From Enterobacteria phage vB_EcoM_IME339, in sequence record MH051915: 64,000 bases of DNA; one strand, given 5' to 3'. The translations under genes and the position numbers were made by a program. Below are positions 3,490 through 9,742 of the stretch, piece by piece. The stretch's first letter is position 1, and each line of letters begins with the position of its first letter. Below the pieces are notes generated by a model. The model was not told the DNA's origin. It saw nothing but the letters and a program-made list of their open reading frames with translations, and searched no databases.

Positions 3490-3800
3490 AAACCGGGTCG
3501 CTACCGGTAAGTCGTCGGACTGATGTTCCCTGGGTAAGGACTGGCATTAACAAATCTTTACGATCTGTTAATGTCCCCTTACATCACAGCAGAAACGGCG
3601 CACAGAATTATCGATTCGAGGAAATATCTTTGCCGTAAGCCGAGTAGCGTTTTTGACGGAACGTTCGGATATGGTCGAGATATGGCCTTTTAAAAATATT
3701 GAGTAGCGTCAACTGCTTAATAACCGGGTTCGAATCCCGGCGTTTCGTACAAACACTTGCCTTAGCAGGTGGAACCCCGACAAGGTTGCCGCAAGGCTTA
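3490..3800 (+). ncRNA. candidate structured small RNA(s), analogous to T4 species 1/2 RNAs of the tRNA region
   Basis: About 310 bp without a credible ORF, relatively GC-rich, repeated gagtagcgt, tRNA-like T-arm aaccgggttcgaatcccgg, followed by terminator. Confidence 0.4.
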
Positions 3801-3829
3801 GCCCCGACCGAAAGGTTGGGGCTTTTTAG
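3800..3829 (+). terminator. intrinsic terminator hairpin
   Basis: agccccgaccgaaaggttggggc followed by ttttt. Confidence 0.6.
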
Positions 3830-3837
3830 TATAAATA
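3830..3837 (+). promoter_or_regulatory. T4 late promoter TATAAATA
   Basis: Exact TATAAATA about 40 bp upstream of the internal-protein-like gene at 3878. Confidence 0.55.
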
Positions 3838-3877
3838 TAGTAGTATATTAAATCCACGAATTAAAACAGGAAATAAG

Positions 3878-4351
3878 ATGAAATCATATGCTCAATTTTT
3901 AAATGAAGCGGTGTTAAATGAAGCATCTAGCACCGAAATTCAAGCTGTCGCAAAAGCAGCCATTGCAGCGGGTAAATATTCCTATAAAGATGCTTCTGAC
4001 GAATCACGATTCCAATTTGCTCGCGACATGAAAGCAGAAGGATTTACGGGAAATGCAGTTAGTATGGCCTGGAAAAGTTTAGTTGCTACTGGCGCTGCTT
4101 TTGCAAAGGCTTCGGGTAAACCTGCTCCTAAAGCAGATCCTAAAGCTGCACAAGAAAAAAATATCGTTAAAGGAATTATCTCTAAATATGAAGCTATCCT
4201 TAAAGAGCTTTTAGTAATCAAAACCGAAGGCCAAAAGCTAGCCCGTGCTTATAGTTTCAAAGATAATCCGCATGTTCACTCTCTTGAGTATGTTGAAGAC
4301 ATCCAAAAAATTATTAAAGACCGCATTTGGTCTGCTAAACAAATCAAATAA
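3878..4351 (+). CDS. internal-protein-like capsid-targeted protein (IP family)
   Basis: 157 aa; N-terminus MKSYAQFLNEAVLNEA resembles T4 capsid targeting sequence with LNE/A-type cleavage sites; Ala/Lys-rich body; late promoter upstream. Confidence 0.65.
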   Translation: MKSYAQFLNEAVLNEASSTEIQAVAKAAIAAGKYSYKDASDESRFQFARDMKAEGFTGNAVSMAWKSLVATGAAFAKASGKPAPKADPKAAQEKNIVKGIISKYEAILKELLVIKTEGQKLARAYSFKDNPHVHSLEYVEDIQKIIKDRIWSAKQIK

Positions 4352-4360
4352 CATTCTTAA

Positions 4361-4386
4361 CCCCAGCCGAAAGGTTGGGGCTTTTT
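4361..4386 (+). terminator. intrinsic terminator hairpin
   Basis: ccccagccgaaaggttgggg + ctttttgg. Confidence 0.65.
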
Positions 4387-4509
4387 GGTATCTAGGCCTT
4401 TCTGGACCTCTCTAGTCATCATTTGGTTTATACCCTTTATAATATATTATCCTATCTTTTAATTGCCCCTCCCTGCCCTAGAATTCCCTAAAACTTTTTA
4501 AAAAATTTT

Positions 4510-4552
4510 TCACAAAACGGTTTACATCTCTGTTCTTCCATGGTACTATACA
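4510..4552 (+). promoter_or_regulatory. T4-type early promoter within a repeated promoter-leader cassette
   Basis: ttttcacaaaacgGTTTACAtctctgttcttccaTGgTACTAT. Confidence 0.6.
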
Positions 4553-4592
4553 ACTATCAACTACTGATACAGAAAACAACTTGGAGAATGAA
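4538..4592 (+). repeat. conserved promoter-leader cassette (PeSL-like), copy 1
   Basis: tggtactatacaactatcaactactgatacag...ttggagaatgaaATG; near-identical copies at about 19695, 21135 and 45905. Confidence 0.6.
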
Positions 4593-5310: not shown

Positions 5311-5384
5311 CATGTTTACATTTCTCAAATAACAGGATATAATTCTACACGGATTTTAAATCTTAATCAACCTAAGGAAATATT

Positions 5385-5978
5385 ATGAACACACTGAAGA
5401 AAATTGTTGAGTTTATTCGCACTAAACTTGGTTCTGCTATGGCTAAAAATCTATCTGTCGAAGAACAGTATACTGCTGCAGCAGCAAAACTACTTGATAA
5501 AATTAAAGATCTAAAAACTGCTTCTGTTAAATCTATTAATGAAGAAAAACGTATTCGTGAACTTATTGTCGAAAAGAATCGACAGGCTGAATCAAAAGAG
5601 CGTGAAATTCGTAAACTTCTTTCCGAAGGTCAAGATGTAACAATGCACGCTAAACTCGGCTTGCTATATCGTCGAACGGCTGAGCAGTTGACTACTAAGG
5701 CTGACGGTTATGCTGAAATGCGAATTGAAATCGCTAAGAAAGTAGTTGAGTTAGATGATGCTCGTCAAGAACTTGCAGTTAAATTGGAATATATCCGTGA
5801 AACTCGTGCAGCAAATGCCCTTGGAATTAGTACTGCAGATGATGTAGTTGAAATCGCAGCGCTGACTAAGGTTGATATTGAAGATACCCTTGCTCGAGTT
5901 GAAACCTTTAACGGTAATATTTCCGGGGTTGAAACTACCTCTGCCGATGTCCAGGAATATATTAATTCTCTGAAATAA
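5385..5978 (+). CDS. coiled-coil protein with weak PspA/IM30-like character
   Basis: 197 aa; N-terminal amphipathic segment then long heptad-like K/E/R-rich helices; resemblance to PspA is by eye only. Confidence 0.5.
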
Positions 5979-5982
5979 TGAT

Positions 5983-6000
5983 AAGGGGCTTCGGCCCCTA
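5983..6000 (+). terminator. UUCG-tetraloop hairpin (terminator or RNA-stability element)
   Basis: aaggggcttcggcccct; no long T-run. Confidence 0.45.
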
Positions 6001-6019
6001 TTACTTGGAGTAAATAGGA

Positions 6020-6625
6020 ATGAAAATGCAAAGTGATTTCAATTCAATGTTTGAAGAGTTCCAAAGACAGGTTGATGTTCCAGACCAATTACTAAATGCT
6101 CTTAAACGTATGGCAGAAGGACGTAATTATTATTGGGGGTCTTCATATGAAACTGATGAAAGTCTTTCTGGATTTTATAAAGGTAAAAAGTCTTTAATAC
6201 GTCCTGGAATACTTATTAAAAGTATTGAATCAATTCATTCATTGACATGTGATTTTGATGTTGAATTTACTGATTTCATTTCTCCTGAATGGACAGTTTG
6301 TTATTTAAATGACGATTATGATTATCTTGGCGTTTATAGTTTAAGTGACGCATGGTTTAAACGTAATTTACAAAAGTCAAATTTGTTCTATATTGATACT
6401 ACGGTAAAATTTCAGGGAAAGAAATATTTCTTTACTCTTATAGTTGATTCTGAAACAAAGCATGAAAATAAACGTATTCTTAGCAAAAAGAATATCTTAA
6501 CTATTGTTGATGATCTTTTTGATAAATTCGTGGAAAATCCTAATTTTGAAAGCGATTTATTATTAGAAAAATTTGTTAAGGAATGTAGAGAATATGTCAA
6601 AGCCATCACTATACCTTCCAAGTAA
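6020..6625 (+). CDS. hypothetical protein; C-terminus carries ..FVKECREY.. motif shared with next three genes
   Basis: 201 aa ORF; start could alternatively be ATG 6026. Confidence 0.5.
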   Translation: MKMQSDFNSMFEEFQRQVDVPDQLLNALKRMAEGRNYYWGSSYETDESLSGFYKGKKSLIRPGILIKSIESIHSLTCDFDVEFTDFISPEWTVCYLNDDYDYLGVYSLSDAWFKRNLQKSNLFYIDTTVKFQGKKYFFTLIVDSETKHENKRILSKKNILTIVDDLFDKFVENPNFESDLLLEKFVKECREYVKAITIPSK

Positions 6626-6986
6626 ACCTGTGAAGTATGAATTAAAGCGCCAGCTAATTTCTACTGATGTATTAATAGGTCCTGTTATACTCATATCATT
6701 TGTAATTCTATTGATTATTGGAGGTGTTTTAGATGTTATGACTGATATTGATTCTGGCGAAATACTTGTGTTAATGCTAATTCTTCCATTAATAGTTCCA
6801 CTTTTATTAGTACCTGTAAATTGGATAGGATATTGGTATCAAGGAAGACATTATCGTAAACGTGTACGTGATTGGAAAGCACAGTGTAAAAAGATTAAAA
6901 AGGAACACCAGCTTAAACTTGTTGAGTATGAATTTAATGAAATTATGAAATTTGTTAAGGAATCACGATGCAAAAGCCAAAACTAA
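6594..6986 (+). CDS. membrane protein, tandem paralog family member 1
   Basis: ORF track 6573; ATG 6594 chosen; hydrophobic helices; C-terminal ...IMKFVKESRCK. Confidence 0.5.
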   Translation: MSKPSLYLPSKPVKYELKRQLISTDVLIGPVILISFVILLIIGGVLDVMTDIDSGEILVLMLILPLIVPLLLVPVNWIGYWYQGRHYRKRVRDWKAQCKKIKKEHQLKLVEYEFNEIMKFVKESRCKSQN

Positions 6987-7330
6987 ATAAAGTCAAATAT
7001 TCGTTCCCCGAGGCACTATTAATTCTTGCCGTGTCAGTATTTGCAGCTCTTGCTGGTAGTCTTATTGGATTGTTAATTGACTGTATTATTTTAAACATCG
7101 ATGGTTCAGCAATTATAACAGAGGTTTGGAGTGAACTTCGTTTTACTATAGCGATTACATTATTTTCATTCTTTGGTACCATGCTATATTTTCATTATGA
7201 TAATTTTAAAATAAATTGGCAAAGAAAAAAGGATTACAAAATACAATTAAAAGAATATAATAGCTACATGTCTTATATTGAAAATGAATCAATGAAAGAG
7301 TTTGTGAGTGATTGCAGGAAAATCAAATGA
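6968..7330 (+). CDS. membrane protein, tandem paralog family member 2
   Basis: 120 aa; hydrophobic helices; C-terminal ...MKEFVSDCRKIK; start overlaps upstream gene end. Confidence 0.5.
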   Translation: MQKPKLNKVKYSFPEALLILAVSVFAALAGSLIGLLIDCIILNIDGSAIITEVWSELRFTIAITLFSFFGTMLYFHYDNFKINWQRKKDYKIQLKEYNSYMSYIENESMKEFVSDCRKIK

Positions 7331-7815
7331 TTTTAAAAACTCGCTGGTATGATTTAGATGACGGGGATGATGGCATTTCAGTTGATAGAGTTGACTGGAA
7401 TGGCTGTTCCGAAGATATGAAAAATTTGCTGATTAGGGAGTTTAGAATGGGATATCAACCAGTTAAGCCATCTACTGCAACAGATGATAAATTCGTGTGT
7501 ATTCATAATGGTCGCGCTAAATTAACGAACGCTGATTGGTTCACAGATAAGATTATGATTCTGTGGTATATTATTAGTTTTCCTGTGACATCATTTGTAT
7601 TTTGCTTCTTTGGAGAAAGTCCAGTAGGCAGAACGGAAGATTGGATTCTTTTAATTATACTTGTTAATATTTTTACAGCAGCAGTACTATCAGGAATATG
7701 GTGCGTGTTCATTGAAATGCCATGGCGGTTACGTAGGCAGCAAAAGATTTTTGATGAAAAGAAATATACTCAAAATTTAAATAATTTTATCACTGAATGC
7801 AGGAAATTAAAATGA
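7327..7815 (+). CDS. membrane protein, tandem paralog family member 3
   Basis: ORF track 7312; ATG 7327 overlaps upstream stop (ATGA); C-terminal ...NNFITECRKLK. Confidence 0.5.
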   Translation: MILKTRWYDLDDGDDGISVDRVDWNGCSEDMKNLLIREFRMGYQPVKPSTATDDKFVCIHNGRAKLTNADWFTDKIMILWYIISFPVTSFVFCFFGESPVGRTEDWILLIILVNIFTAAVLSGIWCVFIEMPWRLRRQQKIFDEKKYTQNLNNFITECRKLK

Positions 7816-8252
7816 AAACATTATCAGCTGGTATTATCTTTATGACAGAAGATAAAGATTTATTTATGGGACGAGTTACTGGTTCTCGTAAGCCTGGAAT
7901 GATGGCACATCGTTGGGATATTCCAAAGGGGCGTGTAGAAAGTTCTGATTTGAATGCACTGGAAGCTGCAAAAAGAGAATGTTTAGAAGAGACTGGCTTT
8001 AGTAATTATAATCCAGACCTTCTAGAAGACCTAGGTGTATTTAAATATTCTAGTAATAAAGACTTACAGTTGTTTTATTATACGATTCCAGTAGAGCATG
8101 AGATGTTTAGAAATTGCCATTGTGAGTCTTATTTTGAAAATAAAGATGGCGTTATGATTCCAGAGATGGATGCTTTTGCTCTTATTCCTCGTACTCAGTG
8201 GCAATATGTGATGGCTCCTTCACTTTACCGAATAATGAACAGCCTCTTTTAA
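7812..8252 (+). CDS. nudE: Nudix hydrolase NudE
   Basis: Nudix box GRVESSDLNALEAAKRECLEETGF; lies immediately upstream of e as in T4; start ATG 7812 overlapping upstream stop. Confidence 0.8.
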   Translation: MKTLSAGIIFMTEDKDLFMGRVTGSRKPGMMAHRWDIPKGRVESSDLNALEAAKRECLEETGFSNYNPDLLEDLGVFKYSSNKDLQLFYYTIPVEHEMFRNCHCESYFENKDGVMIPEMDAFALIPRTQWQYVMAPSLYRIMNSLF

Positions 8253-8783
<531 letters not shown>

Positions 8784-8842: not shown

Positions 8843-9259
8843 ATGACTCGTATTAATTTGACTTTAGTATCTGAACTTGCTGATCAACATTTAATCGCAG
8901 AATACCGTGAACTGCCGCGTGTTTTTGGTATAGTTCGTAAACATGTTGCAAATGGTAAACGGGTTAAAGATTTTAAAATATCTTCCGAGTTTATTTTAGG
9001 TTCTGGTCATGTTACGTTCTTTTATGATAAGTTAGAATTTTTGCGAAAGCGTCAATCAGACATTATAACGGAATGCTTAAAACGTGGGTTTAGTATAAAA
9101 GATACTGAAGTTCCTGACATCAGCGATATTCCAGCAGAATGGAAAAATGATTATAATCCATGCAAATCAGCTATTAAGTTGAGTCAACAACGACTCGATG
9201 AAAAAATTTTAATGAAGCCACACTGGTATAAATACTACGGTAAAAATATTTACATTTAA
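8843..9259 (+). CDS. denV: endonuclease V (pyrimidine dimer DNA glycosylase/AP lyase)
   Basis: 138 aa [29 protein letters not shown]...; matches remembered T4 endo V. Confidence 0.95.
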
Positions 9260-9268
9260 AGGAAACAC

Positions 9269-9742
9269 ATGAAAACATATCAAGAATTTATCACTGAAGC
9301 AGCTATTAATTCTCAAATTATTGCTGAATCTTTTACTGATCTTTTGAAATTTAAAAAAGGTCAAAAAATCACTGCTGTATTGGATGATGGTACAGAAGTT
9401 GAGATGGATGTACAGGGATATAATTATGCAGTAGATGGAAAACTGTATAATAAATCTCACGCTAAATTTGATTCATTTGACGACTTTGTTAATACAGTTG
9501 AAGATGAAAAAACTCGTAGATCAATTTCAACTGGCGATGCTAAGGTTCTTATGGCGCACGGCCATGAACGTATCCGCGCCAAACAGAATAAAATGGGTGA
9601 AGATAATTTTGCATTAGTTGGTTATCAATCTGGTAAGCAAACTTATGGCTATCAGCGTACTGCTACCATGTATAACAAAAATGGTAAAATCGCTTTCGTG
9701 AATAGCAAAGGCTCTATTCAGTACGTCAAATCATTCAAATAA
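9269..9742 (+). CDS. internal-protein-like capsid-targeted protein (IP family), at the ipII/ipIII position
   Basis: 157 aa; N-terminal MKTYQEFITEAAINSQIIAE capsid targeting sequence; body unlike T4 IPII/IPIII by recall. Confidence 0.65.
   Translation: MKTYQEFITEAAINSQIIAESFTDLLKFKKGQKITAVLDDGTEVEMDVQGYNYAVDGKLYNKSHAKFDSFDDFVNTVEDEKTRRSISTGDAKVLMAHGHERIRAKQNKMGEDNFALVGYQSGKQTYGYQRTATMYNKNGKIAFVNSKGSIQYVKSFK

Follow-up and report, generated by a model that had tools for sequence, protein, structure and literature searches.

In the PeSL cassettes of T4-like phages, short conserved sequences flank accessory open reading frames (ORFs) in hyperplastic regions (Arbiol et al. 2010, PMC2839356; PMC4122927). 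PeSLs are intergenic, measure approximately 100 bp and contain an early promoter and a stem-loop; when copies recombine, one ORF is excised or inserted and the chimeric copy keeps the expression signals (PMC2839356). Here we describe the region upstream of nudE in a 64,000-nucleotide (nt) stretch of DNA from Enterobacteria phage vB_EcoM_IME339 (sequence record MH051915; hereafter the window), in which the orthologues of T4 e.5, e.4, e.3, and e.2 end with a common peptide whose codons lie at the gene junctions. The window is of the Tequatrovirus type and is approximately 93% identical to T4. A megablast search with positions 5900-8300 returned 505 phage records with 90-97% identity, nearly all of them from Tequatrovirus; the value for T4 was 92.9%. 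The gene order is that of T4 (MT984581), e.6-e.5-e.4-e.3-e.2-nudE-e, with synteny between e.6 and nudE/e. The four ORFs belong to four separate PHROGs families of unknown function, with matches over the whole protein length.

6020..6625, plus strand: e.5 orthologue (T4 annotation; phrog_2607, E=4e-108), a soluble protein of 201 amino acids (aa) with the tail ...LLLEKFVKECREYVKAITIPSK.
6594..6986, plus strand: e.4 orthologue (phrog_2604, E=5.5e-70), 130 aa, with a hairpin of two transmembrane (TM) segments at residues ~28-49 and ~57-80.
6968..7330, plus strand: e.3 orthologue (phrog_2330, E=2.9e-57), 120 aa, two-TM hairpin, ending ...MKEFVSDCRKIK.
7327..7815, plus strand: e.2 orthologue (phrog_2203, E=1.5e-79), 162 aa, ending ...NLNNFITECRKLK.
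7812..8252, plus strand: nudE (T4 e.1, by T4 annotation), a Nudix hydrolase (Pfam NUDIX, E=3e-13) and the last gene of the overlapping series.

The four tails read ...EKFVKECREYVKAITIPSK in e.5, ...MKFVKESRCKSQN in e.4, ...KEFVSDCRKIK in e.3, and ...NNFITECRKLK in e.2, and the motif that they share is encoded at the following positions.

6572..6589, plus strand: e.5 motif codons FVKECR (ttt gtt aag gaa tgt aga).
6951..6968, plus strand: e.4 motif codons FVKESR.
7301-7318: e.3 motif codons FVSDCR.
7786-7803: e.2 motif codons FITECR.

The pattern [FI][VI]x[ED][CS]R gave five six-frame matches in the 64 kb, compared with 0.95 ± 0.95 in shuffled sequences, and four of the five are the ends of e.5, e.4, e.3, and e.2. 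This confirmed the first-pass annotation, made from the sequence alone, in which the ORFs ending at 6625, 6986, 7330, and 7815 had been credited with a common C-terminal motif. The stricter pattern [FW][IV]xxC[RK] occurred three times in the 184 ORFs of at least 50 aa, each time in the tail of e.5, e.3, or e.2. The motif is real and non-random. It lies near all four gene ends, as annotated, but it does not finish every protein, as 11 residues follow it in e.5 and 5 in e.4. The consensus tail, hydrophobic-x-x-(F/W)-(I/V)-x-x-C-R-(K), is the common feature uniting the four products.

A chance likeness of four AT-rich gene ends was considered, given that the motif was defined after the sequence had been viewed and that a single exact 16-nt repeat, taken alone, is not unusual in 64 kb. 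This explanation conflicts with the excess over shuffled sequences, with the position of four matches at consecutive gene ends, and with the confinement of the strict motif to these tails; it is already refuted by the conservation across genera, where orthologous and paralogous gene ends in nine genera carry the motif.

The nudE neighbourhoods of other genera were fetched, and the tails were read on the small two-TM proteins and the soluble e.5-like proteins. The motif was C-terminal in 27 genes from nine genera of T4-like phages, in arrays of one to five tail-bearing genes upstream of nudE; in Slopekvirus and Bragavirus, no such tail was present among the genes adjoining nudE. The tails read in other genera were the following.

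Gaprivervirus: FIEECRK.
Mosigvirus: FIMECRE.., FVKEIRCK.., FIKECRK, FIKECRGK, FITECRNLR.
Jiaodavirus: FIKYCRE.., FVKEVRRK, WIRSCRK, WIKEMK.
Karamvirus: FINDCRKARK, FITECRGK.., FISRCRIKR, FIQGIRGTR.
Marfavirus: WIKGCRK, WVKGCRK.
Kagamiyamavirus: FVKMCRT.., FIKECKVK, FIQGCRGSK, FIKGIRS.
Moonvirus: FIMQCRM.., FINSCRIKR.
Roskildevirus: FIAMCRE.., FIEDCRK, FVKQVRNSK, FVNSLRK.

Over the 27 instances, Arg was encoded by AGA (8), AGG (6), CGA (5), CGT (4), and CGC (2), Cys by TGT (8) and TGC (12), and Phe by TTT (15) and TTC (8). This codon variety indicates that the amino acids, not the nucleotides, are under selection, and the motif is conserved mainly as protein, with codon choice free, and not primarily as a DNA junction element. 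In the alignment of the e.2 family, whose members are 20-35% identical, I155, C158, and R159 of the tail are invariant, together with five residues of the N-terminal domain (W7, D11, G16, and W24 among them). The motif is also kept in Moonvirus CF1 gp135, where the next start codon is 84 nt away. Among the Tequatrovirus proteins, variation is greatest in the TM segments and smallest in the tails; in e.4, 74 of 75 cluster representatives have the same final 14 residues. When 1.84 billion representatives were searched exhaustively with a profile, only 27 matches at E<=1e-3 were obtained, and the 20 whose sequences were read (seven were not) were all of the e.2, e.3, or e.4 type, with no sign of the family outside the T4-like phages. 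A word-indexed search with e.3 alone found Tequatrovirus relatives only; the Mosigvirus orthologues of e.3 and e.4 were recovered through synteny.

A different conserved C-terminus was seen in Mosigvirus SHSML-52-1 (3790-4584; also in L016, 220-417), where three consecutive small genes of 101, 90, and 65 aa make up a further tandem set and end with ...GAWVSSSALC*, ...GGWVASSHTC*, and ...QGWVSSSYSC*.

The DNA of the tails also serves the translation of the next gene. The next starts are the ATG codons at 6594, 6968, 7327, and 7812, which produce overlaps of 32, 19, 4, and 4 nt, and at all four junctions AAGGA or AGGA lies within the motif codons, 6-11 nt upstream of the next ATG. The annotated role of the motif DNA as the source of the ribosome-binding site and of the close or overlapping ATG of the following gene, nudE included, was thus upheld. 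The Shine-Dalgarno sequence is derived from the K-E codons (AAGGA) in the first pair of junctions and from the R-K codons (AGGA) in the second.

6578-6582, plus strand: Shine-Dalgarno sequence AAGGA of e.4, within the e.5 motif (ATG 6594).
6957-6961, plus strand: Shine-Dalgarno sequence AAGGA of e.3, within the e.4 motif; the e.3 ATG (6968-6970) overlaps the Arg codon.
7301..7330, plus strand: e.3/e.2 junction and left copy of the e.2-flanking repeat, with TGCAGGAAA at 7313-7321, Shine-Dalgarno sequence AGGA at 7316-7319, and the ATGA overlap at 7327-7330.
7786..7815, plus strand: e.2/nudE junction and right copy of the e.2-flanking repeat, with TGCAGGAAA at 7798-7806, Shine-Dalgarno sequence AGGA at 7801-7804, and the ATGA overlap at 7812-7815.

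At 20 of the 27 junctions, the downstream Shine-Dalgarno sequence begins in the six motif codons, and at the remaining 7 it begins after the motif; between the Arg codon and the ATG lie 2 nt in 8 cases and 8 nt in another 8. The tail stands at the gene end and contains many K, E, G, and R codons, so that its DNA also carries the next Shine-Dalgarno sequence. From this arrangement, the five genes from e.5 to nudE are probably translationally coupled.

The start of nudE itself is annotated in two ways. The motif DNA gaATGcaggaaattaaaATG (7797-7815) holds an ATG in frame with nudE, at which the T4 records begin the protein (151 aa, MQEIKMKT...). In relatives, nudE starts at a second ATG (MKTLSAG or MKELSAG); AGGA stands 7 nt upstream of it, so that the 146-aa form is more likely.

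If the motif had no function of its own, it could be a by-product of nucleotide constraints, that is, of the Shine-Dalgarno sequence, the start codon, and dual-frame coding. The location of the Shine-Dalgarno sequence within the motif codons at 20 of the 27 junctions, the use of the rare Arg codon AGG exactly where AGGA results, and the invariance of the junctions within Tequatrovirus fit this explanation. Yet F, I/V, and C add nothing to a Shine-Dalgarno sequence and are the most conserved residues; Arg persists although five codons are used for it, of which CGT and CGC do not yield AGGA; the Shine-Dalgarno sequence follows the motif at 7 of the 27 junctions; the motif persists with the 84-nt spacer of CF1 gp135; and I, C, and R are invariant in the e.2 family despite its 20-35% identity. 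We consider a mere by-product improbable.

Still less probable is a nascent peptide that slows termination or elongation and thereby tunes re-initiation at the overlapping downstream start. The conserved residues do fall in the last 6-17 codons, beside the downstream ATG, and the clustering of the Arg-to-ATG distance at 2 or 8 nt agrees with such a role, but the motif-to-stop distance varies from 0 to 11 codons and the Arg-to-ATG distance from -1 to 84 nt, and the conservation in e.5-type proteins with long extensions speaks against a fixed stall site. A ribosome arrest peptide was rejected, as the spacing is variable and a fixed peptide-to-stall distance is not kept.

The folds of the junction RNAs (-2.7 to -10.4 kcal/mol; z-scores -0.7 to +1.5) were no different from those of shuffled sequences, and no Rfam covariance model matched positions 5800-8400 at E<=1; an explanation by RNA structure was therefore dropped. 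The RegA operator-like sequence AAAUUUGUUAA was rejected because its nucleotides are not conserved across genera. The e.5/e.4 and e.4/e.3 junctions had 0 variable positions out of 66 in seven Tequatrovirus genomes, compared with 16.8% overall, an invariance that dual-frame coding and the ribosome-binding site would explain.

The four junctions had also been described as carrying a single repeated DNA element. This was not borne out, as DNA similarity exists only in two pairs. The e.5/e.4 and e.4/e.3 junctions share an exact repeat, with a score reached in 0 of 2000 shuffles.

6569..6584 (copy 1) and 6948-6963 (copy 2), plus strand: 16-nt direct repeat AAATTTGTTAAGGAAT, invariant in the seven Tequatrovirus genomes.

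The e.3/e.2 and e.2/nudE junctions share 30 nt at 80% identity around the exact core TGCAGGAAA, with a spacing of 485 nt; this score was reached in 1 of 2000 shuffles. The four comparisons across the pairs gave alignments at the level of chance, by which one DNA repeat common to all four junctions was rejected. The 16 nt that the e.5 and e.4 tails have in common are peculiar to Tequatrovirus, and Mosigvirus e.5 has QFIMECR in other codons, which suggests a local gene-conversion patch rather than an inherited duplication.

Positions 7343-7362 and 7827-7846 are similar at 16 of 20 nt and are colinear with the e.2-flanking repeat (spacing 484 versus 485 nt), which would extend the flanks to ~62 nt. 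This similarity is probably due to chance, because it involves different frames of two independently conserved N-termini (e.2 and nudE).

The description of gene plus junction as a unit was supported by natural genomes that lack e.2 exactly from one junction repeat to the other. In phage JE01, e.2 is precisely absent, and e.3 ends with ...gattgcaggaaattaaaATGaaaaca; this hybrid consists of the left half of the e.3/e.2 junction and the right half of the e.2/nudE junction, joined within TGCAGGAAA. The body of e.2 was found in 441 of the ~505 records and was missing in ~63 of 505 Tequatrovirus genomes (~12%). T2, PP01, PST, UFV-AREG1, and many others gave single-piece matches with 98-100% identity to the hybrid junction. 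Since e.2 orthologues occur in several other genera, loss is the likelier direction. The exact presence or absence of e.2 is seen directly in these genomes, and we infer that recombination is its cause. Neighbouring tails would offer the T4 recombination system short in-frame homologies, and a crossover between two of them would remove, or could insert, exactly one gene, after which the hybrid tail would be functional and the ribosome-binding site intact. The loss of e.2 in T2-like Tequatroviruses would be the outcome of such a crossover.

Other variants of these genes were also observed. Escherichia phage vB_EcoM-UFV05 (P0057) encodes an in-frame e.4(1-31)::e.2(85-162) chimera joined in TM1, with e.3 gone and the tail kept. 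The e.4 of P0211 has 69 aa, with both TM helices deleted in frame and the tail kept. In T4, e.2 is annotated at only 102 aa (MT984581 ~4215-4240, corresponding to 7610-7640 in the window), compared with the full 162 aa in the window phage. The T4 protein reads ...FFIKIQWTE* where relatives have ...FFIKNPMDRIEDW..., a difference consistent with an A-run shorter by one A (a frameshift), and the T4 DNA downstream still encodes TM2 and the FITECRKLK tail intact. Within e.4, an in-frame internal repeat (20 of 24 nt) is present at 6623-6646 (KPVKYELK) and 6914-6937 (KLVEYEFN), near the N-terminus and just ahead of the tail; it may be due to chance or be the trace of an old rearrangement.

Paralogy was examined with hhalign, at full length and with the motif removed, each with a reversed control. 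The e.4 and e.3 families aligned at 91% probability (P=1e-6, 117 columns), and at P=2.6e-4 over 96 columns with the motif removed (reversed control, 0.07). Their N-termini also match, as M-x-K-P-x-L...V-K-Y. The e.3 family and the e.2 core aligned at P=2e-7, and at P=3e-4 over 33 columns with the motif removed (reversed control, 1.7e-3). The comparison of e.4 with e.2 did not exceed the control in either form, and e.5 exhibited no similarity to the others beyond the tail. The e.2 core aligned without the motif to the CC31_137/CF1_135 subfamily (P=5e-5).

These values suggest that e.4 and e.3 are probably old tandem paralogues. The case for e.3 and e.2 is weak and would rest mostly on the motif; an old tandem duplication is possible for the wider set of hairpin proteins. 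For e.5, the acquisition of the tail alone appears a better reading than duplication, and other members may likewise have acquired or exchanged only the tail. The serial duplication of a gene-plus-junction module that had been proposed is thus retained as probable for e.4 and e.3, which align over their full length, and not for e.5, which shares the tail only, or for e.4 and e.2, which score at the control level. Similarity beyond the last residues follows the same division, being present in e.4/e.3, weak in e.3/e.2, and absent in e.5.

Alternatively, recombination or gene conversion could have carried the tail, as a mobile C-terminal module, into unrelated genes that are not paralogues, the array being held together by tail exchange and not by duplication. 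The tail is present on proteins that are otherwise unlike the membrane proteins, namely the soluble ones of the e.5 type and a soluble CF1 protein of 95 aa; 16 nt are identical between the e.5 and e.4 tails of Tequatrovirus, where Mosigvirus e.5 has QFIMECR in other codons; most subfamily pairs score like reversed controls once the motif is removed; and the natural e.4::e.2 chimera P0057 joins two of the genes. The alignment of e.4 with e.3 over 96-117 columns including the N-terminus, that of the e.2 core with CC31_137/CF1_135 outside the motif (P=5e-5), and the single architecture of all membrane members argue against this explanation. We hold a purely mobile tail to be a minority possibility, although it is compatible with duplication alongside.

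The three membrane proteins are small multi-TM proteins as annotated; hydropathy and charge gave two hydrophobic segments each for e.4, e.3, and e.2, with K/R-rich termini and an acidic, K/R-poor loop, and no hydrophobic segment for e.5 (maximum KD19 0.85). This positive-inside charge distribution indicates an N-in/C-in hairpin, in which the tails of e.4, e.3, and e.2 would be cytoplasmic. The C-terminal region of e.4 comprises 55 aa, is basic, and has the last residues ...IMKFVKESRCKSQN. In e.2, an N-terminal soluble domain is followed by two TM helices and a long helix; the AlphaFold2 (AF2) model (mean pLDDT 80) places helices at residues 74-95 and 103-160, the second of which runs without a break from TM2 into the tail. 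A single-sequence AF2 model of e.5 was unusable (pLDDT 41). The architecture shared by e.4, e.3, e.2, and ~20 relatives runs from a basic N-terminus through two TM helices to a basic cytoplasmic helix and then the motif; the e.5-type proteins and the 95-aa CF1 protein do not conform to it.

In the membrane members, the tail peptide would therefore close a long cytoplasmic helix that continues from TM2 of the hairpin, and in the e.5-type the same peptide would end a soluble protein. When placed on a helix, L(-3), F(0), I(+1), and C(+4) share one face, with R/K next, and on this basis the tail may be a docking or oligomerisation helix that binds one common partner or mediates binding among these proteins. 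We offer this role tentatively, as a speculative reading on which we would place somewhat less than even confidence.

Several observations weigh against parts of this explanation. The gene e.2 could have been lost only once, in an ancestor, with recombination then spreading the deletion, and not recurrently; for homologous recombination, an exact core of 9 nt is also very short. Glu at position 4 and Cys are not universal, as S, I, or V is found in tails of the e.4 type, and I or M in the KP182_108/CC31_136/EcS1_142 group, 108-120-aa proteins beginning with MIKT. Homology outside the motif is weak for most pairs. ATGA overlaps force a Shine-Dalgarno sequence into the last upstream codons, so that the double use of this DNA is partly trivial; this constraint cannot explain F, I/V, or C of the motif. 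Finally, the four proteins gave nothing above threshold against Pfam, NCBIfam, and PDB sequences, the e.2 model had no Foldseek match in the PDB with E<1, and these searches provided no functional lead. We regard the combination of a protein-level motif, its overlap with ribosome-binding sites, and the cassette deletion of e.2 as very likely. The whole explanation, with the docking role included, is favoured with lower confidence, as somewhat better than even.

A broader reading, which we consider doubtful, would treat the tail as an address tag and the DNA as a linker jointly. The tagged set would comprise T-even early proteins with no other relationship, both soluble ones of the e.5 type and several hairpin families, which would use the tail to bind one common host or phage target or to assemble with one another at the inner membrane. 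The DNA would serve as an in-frame linker with a ribosome-binding site, by which the recombination machinery of T4 could add, drop, or swap tagged genes with the operon intact.

The genes e.2-e.8 were deletable from T4 in a genome-reduction study (PMC9825161), and e.5, e.4, e.3, and e.2 are accessory genes that T-even phages can dispense with. Besides that study, the literature searched on e.2-e.5 yielded only noise. Precomputed Pfam accessions in a large protein collection assign PF26873 to the e.4 type and PF26896 to the e.2 type; both are absent from the local Pfam library used for our scans. Homologues of e.3 and e.4 are named "sulfurtransferase" in some public records, and one e.3 homologue is labelled "DNA primase"; neither name is supported by profile searches. 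A rhodanese/sulfurtransferase assignment for e.3 and e.4 was rejected because no rhodanese domain matched at E<=1 in Pfam or NCBIfam, and the identification of the tail with the rhodanese active site CRK was rejected for the same lack of a domain. The product of e.6 is publicly named "host specificity protein"; in a light check, an NCBIfam scan gave no family above the cut-off.

Around the array, e (lysozyme) was placed at 8289-8783 by its position relative to the T4 annotation. A strong sigma-70-like promoter (11 of 12 matches) is present at 5315-5343, upstream of e.6. Between e.6 (5385-5978) and e.5, a GGGGC-UUCG-GCCCC tetraloop hairpin at 5984-5999 is followed by only a short T stretch; it may be an attenuator or an RNA-stability element heading the e.5-nudE series. 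Directly after e lie denV (8843-9259) and an ORF at 9269-9742 that starts with MKTYQEFITE, which looks like an internal-protein capsid-targeting leader. T4 has ipIII and ipII between e and denV (MT984581 5476-6952), so that the set and order of internal proteins differ from those of the window (8843-9742).

T4 is the best-studied phage, and approximately half of its genes, e.2-e.8 included, are without known function. A tag on four adjacent T4 genes and on at least 27 genes in nine genera provides a testable handle on such orphan genes, and its sharing suggests that they act on one target or together. The locus illustrates how a short coding repeat can have three jobs, as protein motif, ribosome-binding site, and recombination linker, which allows the in-frame loss or exchange of whole genes and of which natural examples exist. 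The analysis also corrects the misleading public names "sulfurtransferase" for e.3 and e.4 and "DNA primase" for one e.3. Neither the annotations nor the literature searched mention the tail as a shared feature, the motif across genera, or the behaviour as a cassette.

The genes and the kinds of mechanism involved, namely coupled overlapping cistrons, short-repeat cassette deletion, and accessory paralogue arrays, are known; as far as the searched literature shows, their combination here has not been described. The nearest relatives are T4 e.2-e.5 themselves, which are direct orthologues at 93% DNA identity and are kept in four separate families by the databases. Coupled cistrons with ATGA overlaps, which are common in phage operons, have the same stop/start overlap and a Shine-Dalgarno sequence in the upstream ORF; here, however, the upstream codons also encode a peptide conserved across families, which coupling does not require.

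The capsid targeting sequence of the T4 internal proteins, MKTYQEFI(A/T)E at the N-terminus, has the local pattern (E/N)-F-I-x-E in common with the tail motif, and the gp21 protease cleaves after I/L-x-E. That sequence is N-terminal and lacks C-R, whereas in the tail motif Glu is dispensable (FIKGCRK, FIKMCR) and C and R are conserved. A capsid targeting sequence or gp21 cleavage site was rejected, as the motif is at the wrong protein end and its Glu is not conserved; we treat the resemblance as coincidental, and membrane hairpins as unlikely capsid cargo.

PeSL cassette shuffling is the closest described mechanism. As with PeSLs, an ORF is present or absent with a chimeric flank, the genomes without e.2 carrying a hybrid e.3/nudE junction. 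Both defining features of PeSLs fail here, as no intergenic -35/-10 early promoter or other promoter-like site and no stable GC-rich stem-loop was found at any of the four junctions. The repeat in this locus is instead 16-30 nt long, lies within coding sequence, carries a ribosome-binding site in place of a promoter, and encodes a conserved peptide. On the address-tag reading, the linker would be comparable to PeSL or integron cassettes set in coding sequence. With this locus, the PeSL model of how T4-like phages shuffle accessory genes gains a second route, which is intragenic.

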